From the IMG/VR virus record IMGVR_UViG_3300020045_006707, positions 1 through 29,733 of that record: a stretch of 29,733 bases of DNA. One strand, 5' to 3'. The DNA is from a virus (Duplodnaviria > Caudoviricetes). This document shows positions 6,735-28,717 of the stretch, piece by piece; positions within the stretch are counted from its first letter, which is position 1; each line of letters begins with the position of its first letter. A program made the position numbers and the translations under genes. The notes beneath the pieces were generated by a model that was not told the DNA's origin, did no database searches, and saw only the letters and a program-made list of their open reading frames with translations.

Positions 6735-7991
6735 ATGAAATACACTAATGACGAATTCACAAAACTTTTAGCATCATCTGAACGAAATCGCAAAAAGAAG
6801 AAATGCTTTCCCGATTTTTGGCTAAAAAGAAATTATCTACCAGAACGGGCAACTGAACTAGCATTTAAGTTTTTCACAAATACGATCACCCCCGAAGAAC
6901 TATCAATGACTCTTGTAGCGCAATGTACAAAAATTGAATTTTGGATAATACGGGGATATTCGGAAAAAGACTCTATCCAAATGGTAAGCAACATACAAAC
7001 ACAAAATTCATATAAGTATGTGAATAAGTATTCTAAAGAGGAACGAAAAGAAAAGAATCACACTTGTATAGAATATTATCTGTCTAAAAATTATTCATTA
7101 GAAGAAGCTACCAGTATATTATCAGAACGCCAATCTACGTTTTCATTGGAAAAATGTATTTCGCGTTATGGTATAGAAGAAGGAACAACAGTCTTCAACA
7201 ATCGTCAAGTGCTATGGCAAAACACATTAAAAGCAAAACCACAAGAAGAAATTGATTTGATCAATGCATCTAAAGCTGTTTCATTAGAAGGACTTTGTAA
7301 TAAATATGGAGTGGAACAAGGTACAGTAAAATATAATGCGTGGTGTGATGCGCATAGATTTACATTTGAATATTGTAAACAAGTTTATGGTGAAGAAATT
7401 GGTTTAGAAAAATATAATGCCCTTAAACTAAAATTGAGTGTGTCATTGGATGGTTTCATACAAAAATATGGGAAAGAACAAGGGACAATACGACATAATG
7501 AATACAAAAATAAAGCAGGACATTCGCTTGATAAATATATAGCGAGATATGGTGATATAGAAGGAACACTAAAGTACGAAGATTATATCGTAAGCCGAAG
7601 CAGATTCTATTCTGATGAATCACTAAAATATTTTAGAACATTCATACCACAAGATATTTTATCAATGTCAAAATATGGGGAAAATGAACTATTATTATGG
7701 GATAAAAGTGAATCGATACATAGAATATTTTTCTATGATTTTACCTTCAAAGATGTTATTGTTGAATATCATGGGCATATGTTTCATGCAAATCCAAAAT
7801 TACCAATTGAAAAATTAATGGAATGGAAAAATCCATTCAACAAAAATATAACATATACAGAATCTATTGCACTTGATGAAAGAAAAAGAAAAAATGCGAT
7901 CAATCATGGGTATAAATATTTTGAAATTTACAGCAATGATAGCGAAGATTACAATTCAATCATCAAACAACAAATTTTAGATGCGTTTTAA
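6735..7991 (+). CDS. Putative free-standing homing endonuclease with a C-terminal Vsr/DUF559-like nuclease domain and repeated helical motifs
   Basis: C-terminal YDF....VIVEYHG..FHANP...DERK...A..HGY..FEIY. Five SL......YG.E.G-type repeats. It appears more AT-rich than its neighbours. Confidence 0.7.
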   Translation: MKYTNDEFTKLLASSERNRKKKKCFPDFWLKRNYLPERATELAFKFFTNTITPEELSMTLVAQCTKIEFWIIRGYSEKDSIQMVSNIQTQNSYKYVNKYSKEERKEKNHTCIEYYLSKNYSLEEATSILSERQSTFSLEKCISRYGIEEGTTVFNNRQVLWQNTLKAKPQEEIDLINASKAVSLEGLCNKYGVEQGTVKYNAWCDAHRFTFEYCKQVYGEEIGLEKYNALKLKLSVSLDGFIQKYGKEQGTIRHNEYKNKAGHSLDKYIARYGDIEGTLKYEDYIVSRSRFYSDESLKYFRTFIPQDILSMSKYGENELLLWDKSESIHRIFFYDFTFKDVIVEYHGHMFHANPKLPIEKLMEWKNPFNKNITYTESIALDERKRKNAINHGYKYFEIYSNDSEDYNSIIKQQILDAF

Positions 7992-11806: not shown

Positions 11807-12396
11807 TATAGATACGGGAGAATTGCGTGTTCCGCTGCTTGGGCAGAATTAAACATTTGTTTATCAATAATCTTACCGTCTACTGTTCGAAGCATAGCAA
11901 AATATTCGCCTTCTTTTTCAATAGTGATAATCTGACCACCCTTACCTGTTTGACGGAAAATTTCTTCCCCTTTTGATTCATGAACTTCTGATTCTTCATC
12001 ATGTTCTTCAGTAACAATACCTTCAGATTCAGCTTTATTATCGTGCATCAAATTTTCGGCGGATAATTCGTCCACAGAACCATCATTCATCTTAATGGTA
12101 TAGTGACCTTCAGTTTGACCTAAAGACATCACCTTACCATGTTTAGACGCATGGGGGGCATAGTTATCTGACACTTGAACTGGATCACCTTCAGAATACT
12201 TGGTAACAACCAAAGTTTTGTCTGAATTTTCAATAAGATACTTTACCAATTCTTTACGTTCAAATGCTTCAACAATTGGTAAAGTCTTGATGTAGGTCAT
12301 CAAATCTGATTCAGACAGATTTTTCGGGACAGATTTTAAGATTGAAGAAAATTTAGCATCCTTCAATTTTTGGAACATTTCTTTAGCATTTTTCAT
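11806..12396 (-). CDS. Hypothetical acidic protein with a KOW/SH3-like segment, possibly head-associated
   Basis: YSEGDPVQV....HGKVMSL....HYTIKMNDG followed by a Glu-rich linker. Overlaps both neighbours, indicating an operon. Confidence 0.6.
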   Translation of the reverse strand: MKNAKEMFQKLKDAKFSSILKSVPKNLSESDLMTYIKTLPIVEAFERKELVKYLIENSDKTLVVTKYSEGDPVQVSDNYAPHASKHGKVMSLGQTEGHYTIKMNDGSVDELSAENLMHDNKAESEGIVTEEHDEESEVHESKGEEIFRQTGKGGQIITIEKEGEYFAMLRTVDGKIIDKQMFNSAQAAEHAILPYL

Positions 12397-13193
12397 TCAG
12401 TTCTTCCTGGTAAGTTTTCGCCATGTAATAGTTGTCTTGGATTTTCAGACCAAGCCTTGTGTAGACTTGGTTTAATTGAAGCAAAGTCTGCATCAGATAT
12501 TTTATCATCATTTGAATCCATAAAATCGCCAGACGCTGGATGATATTGAAATAAAGCCCCATCAGTTTTACGATGTACTGCAAAAAGGGGGCCATCTTGA
12601 TTATATTGGTTGTATCGGCAATTAGTATTCCAAGCAGTACACCATTTAGTTACGGGGGCACCATATGCTTTTTGGGATGATGCTTCGTTACCAACATGCT
12701 TAATAGTGATATGTTCATCATCATACATGGTATGAATACCGGGCAAGTCTTTGTTTACTGAACGTCTTGCTGCTAATGTATTTGCTTGATTCAGATATGG
12801 GGCAGTTGCATGTTCAAGTTCAGTGATAGTTTTGTACTTACCAAAATCCCTTGATTCAATCGGCATCATTGATTTCTTGGATTCGAAATTCTGTAAAGCG
12901 GAAGAAACCCTTGGGGCATCTTCTTGTTTAAACTTACCAGCATGATACATCTGAACAAGTTTTTGGGTATGGAGTTTCTTTTCGGTTGGATCAACAGTTG
13001 CTAAAAAGTCAATCACATCAGATGCTTTACGATGTACTGCATAACCATCATGACTTGTATTGATTTCTGGATATTTGTTTTTCAGAAAGTCAATCTTTGC
13101 ATTTTCTGTTAGAAGTTCTTCATACAAGATTGTACTTGTCTTAGATTCATATAAGGCTGCATATGCCTTACCGATTGCGTCATAATTCTGCAT
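12393..13193 (-). CDS. WCT-motif phage protein, paralog of the N-terminal part of 14109-16352
   Basis: TSHD, DPT..K..TQ and TKWCTAW......Y...GPLF. SD AAGGA and an ATTAAATA box at 13219-13212. Confidence 0.7.
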   Translation of the reverse strand: MQNYDAIGKAYAALYESKTSTILYEELLTENAKIDFLKNKYPEINTSHDGYAVHRKASDVIDFLATVDPTEKKLHTQKLVQMYHAGKFKQEDAPRVSSALQNFESKKSMMPIESRDFGKYKTITELEHATAPYLNQANTLAARRSVNKDLPGIHTMYDDEHITIKHVGNEASSQKAYGAPVTKWCTAWNTNCRYNQYNQDGPLFAVHRKTDGALFQYHPASGDFMDSNDDKISDADFASIKPSLHKAWSENPRQLLHGENLPGRTE

Positions 13194-14108: not shown

Positions 14109-16352
14109 TTAATCCTTAATTAACCGTTGCTTAGCAGCAATTGATACTGATGGTTCATGATCATGTTGCAAAATTTGTAATGTTTTTTCTTCGGTTGATG
14201 GATTCTTAGCCAATGCTTCCCGAACATGGGAAAACGGCGATGATACCAACGAATGAAGAATTGATGGAGGAGTTCTTTCATTTTTAGAAAGGAACCCATG
14301 AAATCTTGGGTTTCCCTTTACAATATCAAAGCTTGATAATTGAGAACTTGGGTGATTCAGGGCTTCAATCTTTGCATGAAACAGGGCTGTTGAATTTGAA
14401 ATCAGATTAGAAATATGGTTCGCGTTAATAAGTTTAGGGGGCGCATCAGCAATCATTTTGGTTTGGGTGTCTAACGCTGATCTTTCCCCCTTTTCGATCG
14501 TCTTATCCATTATCTGGTCAATATGTTTTGACGTAGCTGTCTTTGCGGATAAAATCGAACCAACATGATGCACATTTGATGTTGAGAATCCTGGATGATT
14601 AATAATCTTTGTCAGGTCATCTGCTTTTACTTTTGGATTATCAGTAATGGAAACATCATATTTATCAAGATTCATCATACCTATTTTTGGATGACTAATG
14701 ATAGCATCAATCGCTTCTTTTGGGAGTTTTCTATTTGCTAACCAACCTGTCGATTGAGGGGAAATTGTGCCTCCTAAAACGTGTCTTGTATATGTATCAG
14801 CGTCAAATGGAGTAATATCTTTTCTGTCTAATACGGCATCAAAATTAGAAACCCGAATTGGATCATCTGTTGTTCCTGAAGTCAAAATACGATGAACATC
14901 TTCTTTTGGGGTTTTTGGATTTGAATACAGATTACTTTGAACGTTCCTTCTTAAATTTGGTTGTTTAGAAATCTTTGAAAGAATTTCTGAAGGGGTAAAT
15001 TTATTGGATGCAAGTTCGGGGAAAGATGCATTTTTGCCAGCATCAATATACTCATGATAATATTCAATCGGAACGTGAGGGGATTTCGTATTACTTATTG
15101 CATGAATTTTATAATCTTCCCCAGTATTGTTTATGATTCTTTGAAAATGTTCAGGTTTCATACTTGGAGAATTAATCAAACGTTTCAAATCTTCATGTTT
15201 TTGGTGGACATCAGTATCCGCTAATATATGACCAATCATCGTATGCATAATATCAGGGGATAAATTATCTTGAGCAACCAATTTTGGTAACAAACCATGG
15301 GCTTCAATAATATGATGACGTTGAGATTCGGTCAAACTTGGATTTCCTGCAGTATGATCAGTATAATCACGATCTGTTGCATGACCAAGGGGTAATTTTT
15401 TAAGGGTTTCAAAGTCTTCGTCTGAAATAGGAAGGGCATGATGTTGTAGGGTTTGTCTTACTTTGTATGCATTATCAACCCCTCTACCCTGAACAAATTC
15501 AGAATCATGTTCCTTCAACATCTTACTTACTGCGTCAGGACTTTGTTTTTTAAACTGTTGTTCTAAATCAGAAGTTCCGGGGGCATACCCTTCAAGTTTT
15601 GCAGTATGACTAACGAAATCAGAAATTTCATCTGCATGTTTTGAAAAATTTGTTGCTGGATCAGGATTTTTGGGGTCAATACTAATCATTTGATTTTGTT
15701 CATTATTCAATTGATTAGATTTATGGTGCAAATGAAGTATTTGGTTATCTGGAAGATGAAGGGTATATTTACCCCCTTTATACCCCTCAAAGTGACCATT
15801 ACCGGGCGATGCTGTACACCAACGGGCTTTGCAAATTTTTCCAGATGGGCCATAGTTATGAACCATTGTTTCTACATTAGGAACTTTAAAACCAGTTGCC
15901 CCATTCTGGTCAAAAACTTTTTCTAATGGTTGAACCCCGCTTGCGACTGCTTCTGCTCTTGGGCGAACAGGGGCCAACAAATCCTTCATGTGATCCAAAG
16001 ACTTAATCTTAGTAATATCTCTAATTTCTAAGTTTGGTTTGTTTTCATGAAACGCTTGTAAAGTATCTTTTACTTTGTCTGCATCACCCAAAGTAAAATC
16101 TTTGTTTTCGGCATAAGATTTAGCAAGAAACTGGGTATTCGCTTTGTTTGGGGTTGGGTCCATTTCTGCAATTTTATCAATCACTTCATGGGGATGCATA
16201 CCAGATGCTTTTGGGTCATGACTTGTATCAATCTTCTTACCAAACATCTGCTTGATCGTATCAATTCTTGATTCCAAAAGAAATTCCAATTGACTTTCTG
16301 ATAGAATATCAAGTCGTTCTTCTAATAGGTATTCTACTTGTTCTTTATTCAT
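14109..16352 (-). CDS. WCT-motif domain fused to a long helical-repeat (HEAT/LRV-like) region
   Basis: The N-terminal ~250 aa align with 12393-13193 (ARWCTAS). The C-terminus carries repeats such as VREALAKNPSTEEKTLQIL. Confidence 0.7.
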   Translation of the reverse strand: MNKEQVEYLLEERLDILSESQLEFLLESRIDTIKQMFGKKIDTSHDPKASGMHPHEVIDKIAEMDPTPNKANTQFLAKSYAENKDFTLGDADKVKDTLQAFHENKPNLEIRDITKIKSLDHMKDLLAPVRPRAEAVASGVQPLEKVFDQNGATGFKVPNVETMVHNYGPSGKICKARWCTASPGNGHFEGYKGGKYTLHLPDNQILHLHHKSNQLNNEQNQMISIDPKNPDPATNFSKHADEISDFVSHTAKLEGYAPGTSDLEQQFKKQSPDAVSKMLKEHDSEFVQGRGVDNAYKVRQTLQHHALPISDEDFETLKKLPLGHATDRDYTDHTAGNPSLTESQRHHIIEAHGLLPKLVAQDNLSPDIMHTMIGHILADTDVHQKHEDLKRLINSPSMKPEHFQRIINNTGEDYKIHAISNTKSPHVPIEYYHEYIDAGKNASFPELASNKFTPSEILSKISKQPNLRRNVQSNLYSNPKTPKEDVHRILTSGTTDDPIRVSNFDAVLDRKDITPFDADTYTRHVLGGTISPQSTGWLANRKLPKEAIDAIISHPKIGMMNLDKYDVSITDNPKVKADDLTKIINHPGFSTSNVHHVGSILSAKTATSKHIDQIMDKTIEKGERSALDTQTKMIADAPPKLINANHISNLISNSTALFHAKIEALNHPSSQLSSFDIVKGNPRFHGFLSKNERTPPSILHSLVSSPFSHVREALAKNPSTEEKTLQILQHDHEPSVSIAAKQRLIKD

Positions 16353-17048: not shown

Positions 17049-17085
17049 TATTTAGGGAAGATAGCGTTTGCCTAAATAGATGATA
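17049..17085. promoter_or_regulatory. Back-to-back late promoter boxes for gp14 (minus) and ORF 17111 (plus)
   Basis: CCTAAATA on minus at 17056-17049 and on plus at 17071-17078. Confidence 0.7.
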
Positions 17086-17110
17086 GAATTATCTTTAAAG
17101 GAAAAATAAA

Positions 17111-17679: not shown

Positions 17680-18453
17680 TTATTTTGTCGTTCTTTTTGC
17701 TGCCCAAATAAATAATTTTTGATTCTTCTTGGGGTCAAAATGAATTTCTGGATCGGGATTAACTGTTAGTTTCATATTCCTTGGGGAAATATGTTCTCGT
17801 TGCCCAAATGGACTCAAATCTTCATTATTCCCAATATACAATCCCGTTGACCCCTTTGGATGAGAAATTTTCAGAATATGTCTTTCGGTGAATTCGCCCC
17901 CAAAATGAGGTTTAGTATAAGCAAACGCAACATTTCTTTTTGTTGATGAAGAAGTATAAGCAGGAAGTAATAATTTGTTTCGGTGATCCAAAATAGTTCT
18001 TGGGTCAAATCCCAATCCTGAATATGTAGTCAGGGCATGTTCTAAATGATTCTGTTTCAGGGCATCATCCAAATCATCAGTATTCAGGGTCTTTAATGGT
18101 TGTCCTGTTTTATGATCCGTTCCATAATGATGTACCGTTTCATGGGGTTTCTTGTCATAATGACGGTCAATTAGATGTCGATTCAATAATTTAGAACCAG
18201 TTTCCCCGACTTCCAAACCCCCTGTAATATAAGCATCAACCGCAGTATAATGTTTCTGATTGAGATTAGATGCATGTTCTTTTTCCAATGGTTCCAAAGA
18301 ATCAGAAATATCATTAGCCCGTTCATCCATCTGCCATGTTGCAATAGATTCTTCTATCTTTTTTGAACGATGATGAGAAATATCTGCAACTGGTAAATCC
18401 TTATCGAATTTTTCTGTTAGCATTTGAATGTAGGCTTGTCTAATTGGTTCCAT
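17680..18453 (-). CDS. ADP-ribosyltransferase, VIP2/C3/Alt-like fold
   Basis: AY.....S..LNRHL, TYSGLG (normally YRG), AYTSSS, ILKI..PKG..GLYI and QREHISPRN. Confidence 0.8.
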   Translation of the reverse strand: MEPIRQAYIQMLTEKFDKDLPVADISHHRSKKIEESIATWQMDERANDISDSLEPLEKEHASNLNQKHYTAVDAYITGGLEVGETGSKLLNRHLIDRHYDKKPHETVHHYGTDHKTGQPLKTLNTDDLDDALKQNHLEHALTTYSGLGFDPRTILDHRNKLLLPAYTSSSTKRNVAFAYTKPHFGGEFTERHILKISHPKGSTGLYIGNNEDLSPFGQREHISPRNMKLTVNPDPEIHFDPKKNQKLFIWAAKRTTK

Positions 18454-18463
18454 TATGTTTTCC

Positions 18464-19246
18464 TTATACTAATTTCTTCCAACCAACAAAAACGCTTGGT
18501 TGCGCCCCCCCACCACTTTCCAATCCATAATGGGACTTAGTAAACGATTCAGTTCCAGTTTGGGCAGAATATGCTTTACCTTCATGAACTGAAACGATAT
18601 CAGAAATCTTAATTGGATGGGGAATCCCTACTTCATGTTCCCCTGTTCCGGCAATTTTTACGCCCGTGCCCGGATTCTTTACCCCAACCACATAAACATT
18701 ATGCTTTCCTGAAGCTTTGAATTGCATTGGGGCAAACGAATGGGCATATGATTGGGCTGAAGAAGGATCAGTTGAATAATAGGTCAATCCTTCTTGTCCC
18801 CCCATATTGAATTCGCCTTTAGAATGAATCTGTCCAGTATTTTTAAGATCATGAAATTCTTCGTGAGACATTCCCCGATAGATCACGTTCGGGGTTTCTT
18901 TTTCTTGAATGGTTTGTTTATATTCAGAATCTGGTTTCAAACTTGCCATGTTTCTTGCAAATGGTTCTTCTGCATTATGAAGTTTCAATTCAGACATTTT
19001 TGGATCATACCAACCGTGCGATGACCTATCAGGATACTTTGGTTGGGATAGATAATCTAATGCCCCTTCTGGTTTCTTTGCGTTATAAAGAATATCAAAT
19101 GACGTATAATGTCTTGAATCATCCTTTTTGATTTTAGTAATGTCAAATCTTCCTGTTGATGTAATCTTATCAATATGGGGTTGAAGACTTGGTTCGTTGA
19201 CTTCTTCAGTCAACATTTTGGTATAGGCTTGGCGAATGGGTTCCAC
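18464..19246 (-). CDS. Second putative ADP-ribosyltransferase (R-S-E clade), nested in-frame in the 763-aa ORF, GTG start, 260 aa
   Basis: Begins VEPIRQAYTKMLTE, compared with MEPIRQAYIQMLTE in the next gene. ACTAAATA box at 19276-19269. Motifs IYRGMS, YYSTDPSSAQSYA and GEHEV. Confidence 0.65.
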   Translation of the reverse strand: MEPIRQAYTKMLTEEVNEPSLQPHIDKITSTGRFDITKIKKDDSRHYTSFDILYNAKKPEGALDYLSQPKYPDRSSHGWYDPKMSELKLHNAEEPFARNMASLKPDSEYKQTIQEKETPNVIYRGMSHEEFHDLKNTGQIHSKGEFNMGGQEGLTYYSTDPSSAQSYAHSFAPMQFKASGKHNVYVVGVKNPGTGVKIAGTGEHEVGIPHPIKISDIVSVHEGKAYSAQTGTESFTKSHYGLESGGGAQPSVFVGWKKLV

Positions 19247-20755
19247 AGGTTCTTTCTGTTGTTCTTCATATTTAGTGATTATATAGAACATTCCTTGAGT
19301 CATATTTTTCTTAGTTACAAAGGGGCTTGCAACCATCATACTTCTATATTCACATACACTATACGGCAATAAATTCAACGAATCGGCATAATTGATATAT
19401 AAATTATATGTTGGTGCAGACTGATATTTACCGTCTTTTAATGTATCAACAAAAGAACTAACAGAACAATATTCGCCGGATGATATCAAAATATCGTTGA
19501 ATTCATAATTATGAAAATATGTATCAGAAATTAAGACTGCACTGACTGCATCCATACAAAAAACATTGGTTTCTTCTACTTCTTGGGTCAAATTTCTTAT
19601 TGACAATCGCATCATACTTTGGTACAATGTGTTACCTGACATACTAAAAATGATATCTTCTTGAGAAAATTTAAGGATATTTTTCATGTATGCAGATAAC
19701 ACTGAACTTGGGTTCAAAGCACTTTCAAACACAAAATTACATTTATCTAGATGGCTATTAACCCCATGACAGTTATGAGGAATTAATTCACAATTATCAT
19801 CCAATTTAGAATCATCAGATTTGTTCCGCAATAGAATATATTTTTGTTCCCCAATACGTTCCTTTGTATAATCACGAAATTTATCTAATCGTTCTGGGTA
19901 TTTCCCATTTTTACATTTTGTATGATGATAAATAAGGTCATCATTCATGGTAGATGCATGAAAAATAACTGGTCGATCATGTTTTTCAAATTCCCTATCA
20001 TACTTGATAGTTGCCCCATGTGTTTTCAGGAGAATGCCCATTGGGGTAGTATGAAATGCTGCCGAATAAACATAGACAGATTTATACAGTTCCAAAATAG
20101 AAAAATCAAGACATCCAAAAATATTAATCTTGTCTGCTTGATTTTCCAGTAAACTATTATAATTTGTTGTAGATAGATGTTTGATGAAACTTCTATTTTC
20201 AATTTTAGTCATTAGCTGATAGTTAATCAAATCTGACTTCAGGCCAGTTTTTCTAATATCAACTTCGACAAATCCATTTTCTTCATTTGTTTTTCGGAAA
20301 TACGGGGATAAATCAGGGGAAACGATTGAAAATGTAGTATCTGTTGATTGAATATGGGAAATAGTTTCTGACCAGTATGGAACGGGGGCTTCATCAAAGA
20401 TTAATCTAAACTTAGAAAGGGTATCCTTAGAAATCCCTTTATGATCAATCATCTTGAATGCTTCATGAGTGATGCATATGACGGTGGTATCAAGAAGTCG
20501 GGAAATGAAATCTTTTCCTACTGTTTGACCTTCTTTATTACCTTCACTATTGATGATAGCAAAGTCTGGATATGAAACACCATCTTTTATTAGATGGGCT
20601 TGATATTCTTTTTGAAGGGGAATAGAGGCGACAACAAGAATAGCTTTGTCTTGATTCTGGACATATGTCTTAATCTTTTCCCGACATTTTGTTGATTTAT
20701 AGTTTCCTGCGCCGGATGAGTCGCATGTGATTTTTAATTGTGATAATAGTGTCAT
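18464..20755 (-). CDS. SF2 helicase-like/origin-binding-like protein (first ~500 aa) reading through into the ART-like domain
   Basis: Degenerate Walker A SSGAGNYKST, ILVVASIPLQKEY, ICITH, IFDEAP, YSAAF, HGVN and YQSMMRLSIR. Confidence 0.6.
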   Translation of the reverse strand: MTLLSQLKITCDSSGAGNYKSTKCREKIKTYVQNQDKAILVVASIPLQKEYQAHLIKDGVSYPDFAIINSEGNKEGQTVGKDFISRLLDTTVICITHEAFKMIDHKGISKDTLSKFRLIFDEAPVPYWSETISHIQSTDTTFSIVSPDLSPYFRKTNEENGFVEVDIRKTGLKSDLINYQLMTKIENRSFIKHLSTTNYNSLLENQADKINIFGCLDFSILELYKSVYVYSAAFHTTPMGILLKTHGATIKYDREFEKHDRPVIFHASTMNDDLIYHHTKCKNGKYPERLDKFRDYTKERIGEQKYILLRNKSDDSKLDDNCELIPHNCHGVNSHLDKCNFVFESALNPSSVLSAYMKNILKFSQEDIIFSMSGNTLYQSMMRLSIRNLTQEVEETNVFCMDAVSAVLISDTYFHNYEFNDILISSGEYCSVSSFVDTLKDGKYQSAPTYNLYINYADSLNLLPYSVCEYRSMMVASPFVTKKNMTQGMFYIITKYEEQQKEPVEPIRQAYTKMLTEEVNEPSLQPHIDKITSTGRFDITKIKKDDSRHYTSFDILYNAKKPEGALDYLSQPKYPDRSSHGWYDPKMSELKLHNAEEPFARNMASLKPDSEYKQTIQEKETPNVIYRGMSHEEFHDLKNTGQIHSKGEFNMGGQEGLTYYSTDPSSAQSYAHSFAPMQFKASGKHNVYVVGVKNPGTGVKIAGTGEHEVGIPHPIKISDIVSVHEGKAYSAQTGTESFTKSHYGLESGGGAQPSVFVGWKKLV

Positions 20756-20795
20756 TGAGTGAATGGTTAAAAGTTAAAATGTTTTTCGGGTTCAT
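20697..20795 (-). CDS. 32-aa upstream ORF/leader peptide overlapping the helicase-like start
   Basis: SD GAGGA (20807-20803) then ATG at 20795. Translation is MNPKNILTFNHSLNDTIITIKNHMRLIRRRKL*. Confidence 0.45.
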   Translation of the reverse strand: MNPKNILTFNHSLNDTIITIKNHMRLIRRRKL

Positions 20796-20814
20796 ATAAG
20801 TTTCCTCTGTTTTA

Positions 20815-20998
20815 CTTCCGGGTCTAACGCAGAAGGGGGTTTATTAATCAGTTTTAGTCTATGGGGTAACATTTCCGCGCCTCCACTTACAGCGCCCAAA
20901 CCATAAGGGGTTAGACTTCCCTTATAATCCCCAAGAACCCCATAGACTAAAACTGACTAACCATAATAAATGTAGACATAAACTTTAACGCCTACATT
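20815..20998 (-). ncRNA. Structured cis-regulatory RNA candidate (multi-stem with kissing loops)
   Basis: A 20-bp perfect stem pairs 20848-20867 with 20937-20956. Hairpins lie at 20969-20998, 20903-20925 and 20815-20835. Stem mismatches are G-U pairs on the minus strand. Confidence 0.6.
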
Positions 20999-20999
20999 C

Positions 21000-21019
21000 T
21001 ATTTAGGGTAATTGTAACA
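21000..21019 (-). promoter_or_regulatory. Tandem extended -10 (TGTTACAAT) and late box (CCTAAATA) upstream of the structured leader
   Basis: Minus-strand TGTTACAAT at 21019-21011 and CCTAAATA at 21007-21000. Confidence 0.55.
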
Positions 21020-21177
21020 TAGGAACCCGTGTTTTTGGGTCTTTTTTGAAGAAAGATGAAAATATATTTTCGGGCTTGGATTTTGCGCTCACCGATTAAA
21101 AGAAATCATGGAGAGACACATTATTGTTAAAGACTATCTCCATGTTTTAGAAGTCTGTATCCTAAACAAAAATAAAT

Positions 21178-21570
21178 AACAACTGAGTCTAGTAGGAACG
21201 TTCTGACGTAGGAAGAACTTCCTGTTCCCGTAGGGAACTCATAGAACAACTAAGGCGGTTTAGAAATTTATTTTGTAACGTATAAATATTTTCTAATCAT
21301 TATAGAAGTGTTTAAAGGTCTTAGAACCATCTACAATCGTTTTAAATGGTTTCTAATACATTGTATCTAATTATAATTTCTAAACGATTCTAAACAGGTT
21401 TAAATGGATTCTAGAACTATTATAAACCATTATAGAAAAGTAAATTTCGATCATGAAGTTACTTTGAAATCGTATAAAGAAAATTTCTAAACAAAACGCA
21501 GTTGTACCCTTTAGCCCTAACGGGCAAGGTGGTCTTCCTTCGTCAGACACACCTACTAGACTTAGTTGTT
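21178..21570. repeat. ~400-bp imperfect palindrome with an AT-rich core
   Basis: Nested complementary blocks: 21178-21196/21552-21570, 21202-21216/21533-21547, 21246-21251/21500-21505, 21258-21269/21481-21492 and 21335-21342/21382-21389. Confidence 0.85.
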
Positions 21571-21689
21571 TTTAAACAGTTTTTGTTGTAAATAAACAAC
21601 ATCTAAGTTCAACTGAGTTTCCCCCCCTTAGAACAACTTCAACCCTGTTGAGTGCATTTTCGTGATACAATAGAACCATCTAAATTCAA

Positions 21690-21944
21690 ATGAATATCAT
21701 GAAACTAAACATTAGGGCATACACAAGCAAAATACAGGGTTCCAGAGGAAGGGAAACGCCAATCTATACTTCAAACACTGATGATTGGAAGACTGCAACA
21801 TTGGTAGCAAGACAGTTAGCTAAGGAATATGGGACTTGTGTTGTCGAAGATACAAATTCTGGTCAACGGGTATGGGTTGAAGCATATGAAGTGATTATGG
21901 CAGAACGGGTTGAAGAAGAATTGCGAAAAAGGAACTTATCATGA
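21690..21944 (+). CDS. Hypothetical protein
   Basis: Preceded by extended -10 TGATACAAT at 21663-21671. Overlaps the next ORF by ATGA. Confidence 0.6.
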   Translation: MNIMKLNIRAYTSKIQGSRGRETPIYTSNTDDWKTATLVARQLAKEYGTCVVEDTNSGQRVWVEAYEVIMAERVEEELRKRNLS

Positions 21945-22207
21945 TCTACAAAATTTTCTACGAATTCAAGAATGCATCAAACAAGACCACATTTGATACT
22001 TCTTCCTTGATCATTGCATCCAACCCAAAAGAAGCTTTGGAATCATGGGCATTACATAAGACTGATTTTGTCAAGAAGAATTTGACTAATTTGGGAGTTC
22101 ATGAACTTCAGAGGGATTATTATGGAAGATACAACAAAGTTTATACTGTTCTGAACGATGATGAGACTATGGAAATTATTCAGGAATTCAGGAAAAGTTT
22201 GATATAA
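21941..22207 (+). CDS. Hypothetical protein
   Basis: SD AAGGA and an ATGA overlap with the previous ORF. Confidence 0.65.
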   Translation: MIYKIFYEFKNASNKTTFDTSSLIIASNPKEALESWALHKTDFVKKNLTNLGVHELQRDYYGRYNKVYTVLNDDETMEIIQEFRKSLI

Positions 22208-22217
22208 TAAAGATATT

Positions 22218-22294
22218 GGGTTTATCGTCTAATTGGTTAAGACCCAGCCCTCATAAGACTGAGAATTTCAGATCATACCTGAATGAACCCACCA
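22218..22294 (+). tRNA. tRNA-CAT (Met or Ile2)
   Basis: Acceptor GGGTTTA/TGAACCC plus ACCA, D stem GTCT/AGAC, anticodon loop CTCATAA, T stem TTCAG/CTGAA with atypical loop ATCATAC. TGATATAAT lies at 22200-22208. Confidence 0.8.
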
Positions 22295-22350
22295 TAAAAT
22301 TGATCTTAAATAGATCAATGCTTGATAGTTGCATTAGAACCTATCAATTT

Positions 22351-22426
22351 CTCCGATTAATATAGTCTGGTAGTATCCATGCTTTGGGAGCATGTAGCGT
22401 AGGTTCAAATCCTACATTGGAGACCA
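22351..22426 (+). tRNA. tRNA-Pro(TGG)
   Basis: Acceptor CTCCGAT/ATTGGAG plus ACCA, anticodon arm CATGC-TTTGGGA-GCATG, T arm GTAGG-TTCAAAT-CCTAC. Confidence 0.92.
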
Positions 22427-22439
22427 AGAATTCTTAGGT

Positions 22440-22512
22440 GTGACTATAGCTTAATGGTAAAGTCAAGGATTGTGATTCCTTTTATCTGAGTTCAATTCTC
22501 AGTAGTCACCCC
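22440..22512 (+). tRNA. tRNA-His(GTG)
   Basis: Acceptor GTGACTA/TAGTCAC with C73, anticodon arm AAGGA-TTGTGAT-TCCTT, T arm CTGAG-TTCAATT-CTCAG. Confidence 0.88.
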
Positions 22513-24245: not shown

Positions 24246-24728
24246 TTACTTTGATTTTGTGTTCTGTCTATTGTGTAATGCAGTCTTTGCATCATCTAAA
24301 GACATACCTTGATTGATAAAATATTCAATCTTAGTATTATTTGTTTCTGGGGAATTCAATTTTGCTAATGAAATATTTTCGGATACAATCTTTATTTTGC
24401 GTTCTATTTCTAATTCGGTTAAACCAAGATACCCAACGAAATTTTTGTTCAACGCACTGTACTTTCCCCCATGACCTGCTGCTGGATTATTTTCCCCGGA
24501 AAATTTTAACTTCTTGTCAGGACAAACACACATAAAGTTTAAACATTCTTCTTTTGATAGTTTATGAACTTTTTGAAAATGCCCTGATAAATCACGTCCA
24601 CGAAATCTACAAATATGACATTCGACCCAATTGATGTTACGTTCATCTTCATTACAATATTTTTCGATTGATTCTTTGCGACGTTTTTCTTGGGCGTTCT
24701 TAGCGTTTTGTTCAACATTTCTTGCCAT
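24246..24728 (-). CDS. C2H2 zinc-finger protein resembling the N-terminal, nuclease-less part of a homing endonuclease (possible remnant)
   Basis: SD AAGGA before ATG 24728. Contains CHIC......L..H...H and SGENNP. NTKIEYFINQGMSLDDAKTALHNRQNT matches HTCIEYYLSKNYSLEEATSILSERQST in ORF 6735, then the ORF stops. Confidence 0.6.
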   Translation of the reverse strand: MARNVEQNAKNAQEKRRKESIEKYCNEDERNINWVECHICRFRGRDLSGHFQKVHKLSKEECLNFMCVCPDKKLKFSGENNPAAGHGGKYSALNKNFVGYLGLTELEIERKIKIVSENISLAKLNSPETNNTKIEYFINQGMSLDDAKTALHNRQNTKSK

Positions 24729-24777
24729 GGGGATTCCTTTAAGTATAAGTAAATAAGGCATTATACATCAAAACCAA

Positions 24778-24797
24778 GTTTGCCTAAATAGATGATA
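24778..24797 (+). promoter_or_regulatory. Late promoter of the tail sheath operon
   Basis: CCTAAATA at 24783-24790, within a 20-mer identical to 17066-17085. Confidence 0.7.
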
Positions 24798-24820
24798 AAG
24801 ATATTTTTAAAGGATTTAAT

Positions 24821-27367: not shown

Positions 27368-28717
27368 ATGTCGTACAATATTTTCGGTTTTGAAATCCGT
27401 AAGGCGGCGATTAATCCCGCCCTTACTTCCCCAACAACTAATGATGGGGCAGTTGAACATGACGTTTCTGGTTCATCTGCGGGGGCATATGGGGTATATC
27501 TTGACCTGAATAAACGTATTGTTAATGAAGTTGATCTCATTAACAAGTATCGGGCAATGGCAAATTATCCAGAAATTGATAATGCCATTGAAGATATTGT
27601 AGATGAAGCTATTGTATCAGAAGATGACAAAGCCCCAGTGTCAATCAATTTTCGGACAATGGGGGACGAAATTCCCCTGAATATTCAACAATTGATTTCT
27701 GCTGAATTTGAAACCATTTTGTCATTATATGACTTTCGGGCAGAAGGTCATGATATTTTTAGACAATGGTATGTTGATGGTAGATACTATTCCCAAATCA
27801 TCGTTGATGAAACCAATCTGAAACTTGGCATTCAAGAAATTCGTAATCTTGATCCAAGAAAAACTAAGAAGGTTCGGGAACTAACGAAAACTAAAGGGCC
27901 GGGAGGGGTTGATGTAGTTACTGATGTTCAAGAATACTTTATCTATGGGGATACTGGAACCGCAAATACATCAACTGGGGTGAAGTTATCACCTGATACC
28001 ATTATTCATGCTACATCAGGAAGAACTGATGAATATGGGAATACGGTTAGTTATCTCAATAAATGCATAAAACCCTCAAATCAATTGAGGTATATGGAAG
28101 ATGCTGCTTTGATTTATACATTATCGAGGGCACCATCAAGAAGGGTATTCTATATTGATATTGCTGATATGCCAAAGCAAAAAGCAGATCAGTATATGCA
28201 GAATATCATGACTAAGTTTAAAAATAAGGTAATATACAACAATTCGACCGGAGAAATTTCTGATGACAGAGTTCATCAGACATTAATGGATGACTACTGG
28301 TTACCCAGAAGGTCCGGGGGGAGGTCCACGGAAATTCAACAATTGCCATCTGAAAACATCACTGGTCAAATTGAAAACATCATGTACTTTCTGAACAAAG
28401 TATATGGAGCTTTGAATATTCCCCAAAGTCGGGTAAAACAAGATGCTGGATTTTCATTGGGTCGTTCCCAAGAAATTACAAGGGATGAACTTAAATTTTC
28501 TAAGTTCATTGATCGATTAAGAAACAAGTTTTCTGATATTTTCCTTCAGGCATTAAGGGTTCAATTGGTTCTAAAGGGAATCATCACCCCCGAAGATTGG
28601 GATTTCATCAAATCAAGAATCGCGTTTGATTATCAACGAGATAACTATTTTACTGAACTGAAAGAATCAGAAATTCTAACCAATCTTCCCCAACATATGT
28701 ATAACCATTCTTTTTAG
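27368..28717 (+). CDS. gp20: Portal vertex protein (T4 gp20-like), C-terminally truncated at ~28685
   Basis: YR.MA.YPEID.AIEDIV, FRQWYVDGR, SRAP.RRVFYID, DYWLPRR and EITRDELKF.KFI.RLR. Similarity stops after YFTELKESEILTN. Confidence 0.93.
   Translation: MSYNIFGFEIRKAAINPALTSPTTNDGAVEHDVSGSSAGAYGVYLDLNKRIVNEVDLINKYRAMANYPEIDNAIEDIVDEAIVSEDDKAPVSINFRTMGDEIPLNIQQLISAEFETILSLYDFRAEGHDIFRQWYVDGRYYSQIIVDETNLKLGIQEIRNLDPRKTKKVRELTKTKGPGGVDVVTDVQEYFIYGDTGTANTSTGVKLSPDTIIHATSGRTDEYGNTVSYLNKCIKPSNQLRYMEDAALIYTLSRAPSRRVFYIDIADMPKQKADQYMQNIMTKFKNKVIYNNSTGEISDDRVHQTLMDDYWLPRRSGGRSTEIQQLPSENITGQIENIMYFLNKVYGALNIPQSRVKQDAGFSLGRSQEITRDELKFSKFIDRLRNKFSDIFLQALRVQLVLKGIITPEDWDFIKSRIAFDYQRDNYFTELKESEILTNLPQHMYNHSF

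Follow-up and report, generated by a model that had tools for sequence, protein, structure and literature searches.

A YonV-like helicase gene beside an AT-centred palindrome in a T4-like phage fragment: a possible initiator and its origin

Does a T4-like phage carry a helicase that initiates replication at a palindrome beside its own gene? The question is raised by a locus in a 29,733-nucleotide (nt) stretch of viral DNA (IMG/VR record IMGVR_UViG_3300020045_006707, the whole of which is termed the window). An earlier note, made from the sequence alone, had described four adjacent elements, namely an open frame resembling superfamily 2 (SF2) helicases, a short upstream open reading frame (uORF) overlapping its start, a structured leader and a palindrome, and had read them as an initiator-origin unit under RNA-level control. 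All four are present where that note put them; late-promoter-like motifs, a fusion of the helicase frame to a virion-type gene and an altered P-loop, which it did not list, are added here. Our answer is a tentative one: judged from sequence comparisons, helicase and palindrome could well be an initiator-origin pair, and the palindrome, from what relatives of the gene show, is likely to be a replication origin. The features concerned, in window coordinates, are:

21175..21573, no strand assigned: imperfect palindrome, candidate origin, with arms of about 100 nt and a 195-nt AT-rich centre holding many TAGAA words
20999..21007, minus strand: late-promoter-like motif CCTAAATAG, directly ahead of the leader's first hairpin
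20815..20999, minus strand: structured leader, with a 5' hairpin (20968-20999), a long stem (20844-20867 / 20937-20960) around two hairpins, and a 3' hairpin (20815-20835)
20697..20795, minus strand: 32-residue uORF, out of frame with the helicase and overlapping its start by 59 nt, with a Shine-Dalgarno (SD) sequence at about 20803-20808
19271..20755, minus strand: YonV-like (phrog_2467) SF2 helicase, residues 1-495, identified by PHROG, Atlas, motifs and fold search
19267..19276, minus strand: late-promoter-like motif at the fusion junction, the same as that before structural genes
18464..19246, minus strand: probable separate virion-protein gene, with a GTG start, in frame with the helicase, with an N-terminal leader and a TAAATA motif

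The helicase gene, the palindrome and their relatives

The frame at 18464-20755 (minus strand, 763 residues) is confirmed as open, and the helicase proper is residues 1 to about 495 of it only; the description of the frame as helicase-like holds for that part, the remainder being probably a separate virion gene. Residues 16-420 match phrog_2467, the YonV-like SF2 helicases, across the two-domain core (PHROG E 6.3e-28), and the protein has an Atlas score of 0.97 to YonV_C clusters, at TM 0.6-0.7. The protein has kept motifs II, V and VI, as DEAP (the DE of Walker B), HGVN ((H)GxN) and QxxxRxxxR. A structure model built from 18 sequences reached a predicted local distance difference test score (pLDDT) of 58, a single-sequence model an unusable 33; in a fold search among predicted viral structures the former retrieved family members first, including those of Atu_ph07 and RSL1. 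By no profile match is the protein UvsW. Close relatives were found neither in phage records (E 1e-3), IMG/VR, the protein collection and metagenome contigs, searches in which the nearest subfamily may be missed, nor among plasmids or PDB sequences. A frameshift fusing uORF and helicase was considered and rejected: the main frame already has the first strand and the P-loop region, which the joined product would lose.

The gene stands head to head with the palindrome, whose arms (21175-21277 and 21473-21573) are 70% matched across 104 columns (E 1.8e-10) and which folds with a z-score of -10.3. The palindrome of some 400 bp with an AT-rich centre that had been described is thus there, but it is imperfect, and it carries TAGAA words that had gone unlisted, 14 of them against 2.15 expected. 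A z-score scan of the whole window (6 shuffles) was too noisy for use, and blastn of 20700-21700 returned chance matches only. If gene and palindrome do form a pair, the family protein would bind the short words repeated in the adjoining palindrome, and the bound helicase would help the AT-rich centre to open for the phage replisome, in the way of UL9 at oriS and without membership of PF02399.

Relatives were found through weak tblastn matches, confirmed by PHROG and then extended; they show two layouts, one T4-type and coupled, the other stand-alone. Of the 7 regions folded upstream of stand-alone members, 6 are strongly palindromic (z -3.4 to -9.0), HM1 reaching only -0.8, and in Atu_ph07 palindromic DNA flanks the gene on both sides. 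In PhiXhv-12 the upstream region holds 8 TAGAAAT words, against 0.04 expected, akin to the window; other relatives repeat different words. Among T4-type members, Aeromonas 31 has a strong palindrome downstream of the gene (z -8.2), and three others have short hairpins there, as seen by eye. Between helicase stop and gene 55, S13, Cronus and Muldoon have in common a short AT-centred inverted repeat and a GCGTAGC hairpin, and Aeromonas 31 has an annotated repeat.

Nine genomes were compared throughout their length (RSL1, Motura, PhiXhv-12, BCSR5, BcepSauron, J2-1, Atu_ph07, Cronus and Aeromonas 31; Motura without its last 1431 nt and J2-1 without its last 295 nt). Ranked genome-wide by perfect stems, the flank of the gene comes first in J2-1, Motura and PhiXhv-12 and second in RSL1 and Aeromonas 31 (5/9 genomes); it ranks lower in BcepSauron (6 and 25 for the two copies), Cronus (18), Atu_ph07 (69) and BCSR5 (78). 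When only non-coding gaps are ranked, it is first in Motura, PhiXhv-12, BCSR5 and Aeromonas 31, four of the six genomes with an adjacent gap called, and eighth in J2-1 and Atu_ph07; the other three had no such gap. In RSL1, Motura, PhiXhv-12, BCSR5 and, for copy 2, BcepSauron (5/9, all RSL1-like jumbo phages), the 5' end of the gene is 127-1295 nt away from the AT-skew minimum. Once the skew is corrected for coding strand, RSL1 and BCSR5 still place this position first or within the top 3%, and BcepSauron within the top 6%.

RSL1-like phages also carry a TAAATA motif upstream of the gene and of just 3-6% of their open reading frames (ORFs). The same motif precedes their genes for DnaB, primase, clamp loader, single-stranded DNA-binding protein and ligase, and among 30 scanned of the 52 other ORFs so preceded, 11 are of DNA metabolism, 6 are otherwise named, 13 are unnamed and none is structural. 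The Atu_ph07 member has a primase-like domain at its C-terminus (E 8e-5). Nine of ten genomes searched hold one copy of the helicase each, and neighbouring genes vary among the jumbo-phage members. BcepSauron has two copies 124 kb apart (109748-111656 and 233869-235749); the AT-skew minimum falls at the start of one copy, the maximum at the end of the other.

Palindromic DNA, skew switch, co-regulation with replication genes and primase-like fusion together suggest that the family is paired, initiator with origin, with the DNA beside it. According to section 17 of PMC5862659, T4-like phages and SPbeta share a predicted helicase family, with fusions to archaeo-eukaryotic primases (AEP) and one subgroup nearest UL9. 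Host range, remote SF2 likeness and primase fusions of its pVOG1685 and pVOG9714 helicases are as here (PMC5862659; Pfam YonV_C, PF27199; phrog_2467); these groups, we infer, equal phrog_2467. The family account in PMC5862659, as far as that section goes, draws no link to palindromic DNA, and the window copy differs from the family in having neither GKT nor a basic tail and in being fused to a virion gene. The family is one predicted earlier and uncharacterised. Our literature search, in which coverage of subscription journals was thin, found no account tying YonV-like helicases to adjacent palindromes, and no paper in which the origins or initiators of these phages, jumbo or T4-like, are mapped. 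Were the pairing general, it would offer a testable origin and initiator in the cultured phages RSL1 (ORF295), BCSR5, Motura, PhiXhv-12 and BcepSauron; it would also mean protein-directed initiation in a group usually described through the T4 R-loop model. The window copy matters less to this, since it seems to be altered and there is no close relative to set beside it.

The leader, the short upstream frame and the run-on gene

SD strength is -6.0 kcal/mol at the uORF start and +2.0, that is none, at the helicase start, which bears out the earlier finding that the uORF holds the only good SD; but among the 26 other called genes 8 are also at 0.2 or worse, so that a missing helicase SD tells little by itself. 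Little or no SD is found at the helicase start in five of eight stand-alone relatives. A short SD-bearing ORF overlapping in this manner occurs at 9 of 1166 background positions; in the window its stop lies 59 nt within the helicase gene.

The leader, 185 nt long, folds with a z-score of -6.7 on the minus strand (11 G-U among 62 pairs) and -5.4 on the plus strand (1 G-U among 50 pairs); that the fold is best and G-U-rich on the minus strand suggests a single-stranded structure on the mRNA strand. The arms of the main stem, 24 nt each, are 96% complementary. The complementary loops previously reported are also real, those at 20910-20916 and 20822-20828 matching across 7 nt (-8.3 kcal/mol), with a chance of 0.0016 for a given loop pair and, by estimate, about 1% over all loop pairs. 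The partner loop at 20822-20828 precedes the uORF and is 67 nt away from the helicase start, whose codon sits in just a 4-bp hairpin. Loops at 20820-20830 and 20905-20925 look like tRNA T-loops, with A replacing C56 of the consensus; a tRNA remnant in the leader was rejected by Rfam and tRNA scans. Rfam gave no match over the leader, helicase and palindrome. A search for the loop-hairpin pattern returned 24 viral loci, in one of which the partner word lay downstream; none of the five that were folded had the architecture of this leader, and one pattern match fell inside a tRNA array.

RNA-level control of the kind proposed by analogy with IncI plasmids is not supported, the likeness failing most of the defining tests. 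In ColIb-P9 the leader stop codon lies within a stable stem that masks the initiator SD and start, and the pseudoknot partner is immediately upstream of the initiator SD (PMC4705826). The window shares with the ColIb-P9 repY/repZ/Inc system a short SD-bearing upstream ORF and loop-mediated pairing in the leader; it differs in that no SD is masked, the pairing is away from the initiator start, the uORF stop is inside the gene, no antisense gene was found and the protein is of another family (PMC4705826). For an antisense RNA, the plus strand showed no sigma70-like promoter from 19815 to 22199, and only a weak terminator-like site at 21025-21040; a plus-strand site at 19600 matching 11 of 12 sigma70-like positions was set aside as within chance (13 such sites against 21.7 expected). 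A switch in which the leader peptide, on being translated, sets off a pseudoknot and so opens the ribosome site of the initiator, with an antisense RNA to block it, is a very improbable account of the locus. In its favour are the complementary loops and the rarity of an overlapping uORF with the only SD; telling against it are the upstream position of the loop partner, the lack of a helicase SD to unmask, the uORF stop within the gene, the lack of a sigma70-like plus-strand promoter in the stretch scanned and of such a uORF in eight relatives, and the consideration that copy-number control is not obviously needed by a lytic phage. What the leader, the overlapping uORF and the missing SD could do is to hold helicase output low, the leader by its fold and the uORF by diverting ribosomes.

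In the window phage, the TAAATA late-promoter-like motif stands 24-40 nt before the sheath, tube, neck, wedge and terminase genes. Since it marks structural genes there, leader, uORF and helicase are likely to be expressed late, as one transcript. A second such motif, 28 nt ahead of the GTG of the 18464..19246 gene, lies at the point where the helicase frame runs on. The 18 N-terminal residues of that gene's product (from residue 504 of the long frame) are 61% identical (11/18) to the start of the gene at 17680-18453, and similar N-terminal leaders begin small genes of a related contig; on the model of T4, these shared leaders presumably target proteins to the head. The product has an Atlas score of 0.87 to a HYD1-type ADP-ribosyltransferase (ART), which, being below 0.9, is a lead only. 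At several structural genes the late-promoter motif has TAG as its last letters; a TAG at that point of the helicase frame would end the protein after residue 495, not far from the usual family length of 473-492 residues. A single base could thus account for the fusion, which is most simply explained by loss of the stop codon at the junction. The GTG start has an SD of only -0.9, and the linker of 83 codons is stop-free, as open as only 14 of 20000 shuffles; with the start nearly without SD and the linker open against the odds, it is plausible that some read-through product of helicase and virion gene is made.

Weighing the initiator-origin reading

The herpesvirus origin oriS consists of boxes and an AT spacer. 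The locus resembles HSV-1 (herpes simplex virus 1) UL9/oriS (PMC12543377) in pairing, as far as sequence can say, an SF2 helicase with an adjacent palindromic site that is AT-centred and repeats short words; it differs in that neither the window protein nor five relatives match PF02399 at E 0.05, and in that no UL9-type C-terminal domain was recognised in the window protein. Another parallel is T5 D2, which PMC3632103 relates to UL9 and for which a part in initiation has been suggested, making it a phage SF2 helicase proposed as a replication initiator; D2 has PF02399 and a helix-turn-helix outside the core, and the window protein, with no such match, is about half its size (PMC3632103). An origin-binding helicase is annotated in a Campylobacter phage (PMC3322345). 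T4 itself has R-loop origins, oriF and oriG, made from middle promoters, and an iteron origin, oriE, where the role of the iterons is unproven (PMC3016281). Points in which T4 invites comparison with the window are the T4-like character of the phage, the iteron cluster at oriE, the siting of T4 origins near transcription switches and a late origin-regulating helicase, UvsW (PMC3016281); the window parts from T4 in that oriF and oriG are R-loop-based and its own protein is not UvsW by profiles.

Several results weigh against an initiator-origin pair. In nine T4-type phages the gene is coupled to the gene upstream and stands ahead of gene 55, and both leader and upstream palindrome are missing; an overlapping SD-bearing uORF is present in none of the eight stand-alone relatives examined. 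The AT-skew minimum is 42-92 kb off in J2-1, Atu_ph07, Cronus and Aeromonas 31; skew partly tracks gene strand, and its coding-strand-corrected signal is weak in Motura and absent in PhiXhv-12. The five skew-positive genomes are kin and are not five independent tests. No skew switch was detected in the window, which is 18% of the genome. Herpes origin-binding protein came only 33rd, at TM 0.20, in the fold search with the pLDDT 58 model, and the TAAATA motif makes the window gene look late.

The remaining adverse points concern the window copy itself. Its P-loop is GAGNYKST, lacking the GK[TS] that appears as GKT in 31 of 31 relatives, and its tail is not basic (lysine plus arginine 0.10, net charge 0), compared with 0.19-0.31 in 30 of the 31. 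On a contig with 70% terminase identity the module is absent from the matching site. The copy is derived and possibly damaged, and may be weaker as an ATPase, a binder rather than a motor. A serious rival reading, though rather unlikely, is that the family is origin-associated and this member a decaying, non-functional relic, a block that landed among structural genes and lost the P-loop glycine, the basic tail and its stop codon: it is the sole member without GKT, its frame runs into a virion-type gene, it has no SD, it is missing from the matching site of the related contig, and no close relative of it was found. Decay sits poorly, however, with the intact motifs II, V and VI, with a linker that has stayed open and with a leader and palindrome that remain well paired.

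Also a serious rival, but unlikely, is a protein produced late whose action at the palindrome follows initiation, when it might shut off origin firing in the manner of UvsW or process branched DNA in the course of recombination or packaging. The leader does begin directly behind the motif found ahead of the sheath, tube, neck and wedge genes, UvsW is expressed late and resolves R-loops at origins by unwinding them (PMC3016281), and the ends of BcepSauron copy 1 and of the J2-1 copy are no more than 1 kb from the AT-skew maximum; but the RSL1-like upstream motif places the gene with replisome genes, T4-type copies sit before gene 55 with nrdH and 55.2, and a primase-like fusion suits initiation. 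More improbable is that the fusion was selected, a late helicase joined to a head-targeted protein being packed in the virion and delivered along with the DNA, so as to open the origin when the next cell is infected. The late-type promoter, the open linker and a C-terminal part whose leader is common to the next gene and resembles leaders in a related contig would fit, but that leader would be internal rather than N-terminal, the downstream gene retains its own promoter motif and GTG, and one junction base accounts for the fusion, seen in a single contig. The boldest synthesis, equally improbable, would make YonV-like helicases the initiators of many large myophages, each with its own repeat word in the adjacent palindrome, and the window's initiator a late one with a pseudoknotted leader, fused to a head-targeted protein, packaged and delivered with the genome, firing the origin before phage gene expression. 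As for gene and flanking hairpins being a selfish mobile block, the differing neighbours in jumbo phages and the empty site in the related contig would be expected of one; it is nevertheless very doubtful, since Pfam and PHROG show no nuclease or recombinase in the block, its position before gene 55 is constant in nine T4-type phages, and 9 of 10 genomes hold a single copy. An initiator and its origin is the reading of the pair that we retain, tentatively.

Neighbouring genes

The fragment, 29.7 kb and by estimate 18% complete, carries by Pfam and PHROG profiles genes for terminase, sheath, tube, portal, prohead protease, neck, wedge and PhoH, and its assignment to a T4-like phage in the earlier note agrees with these. 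Its terminase has a top identity of 52% among phage records. Two neighbouring features are:

17680-18453, minus strand: ART-like gene, Pfam ADPrib_exo_Tox E 1.4e-4, under the curated cut-off
22218-22512: tRNA-Met, -Pro and -His, 0.65 kb past the palindrome

Portal (plus strand) and prohead protease (minus strand) converge and overlap at 28650-28717, an order that differs from that of T4; the portal ORF is only 449 residues long. A 37-nt near-duplicate at 17066-17102 and 24778-24814 combines the late-promoter motif with an SD ahead of two plus-strand genes. The unknown proteins at 12393-13193 and 14109-16352 are paralogous (29% over about 190 residues), with acidic, LxE-rich N-termini, and are likely to be head-internal. 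A 32-residue motif is common to the unknown ORFs at 6735-7991 and 24246-24761, the former of which holds 81-nt repeats.

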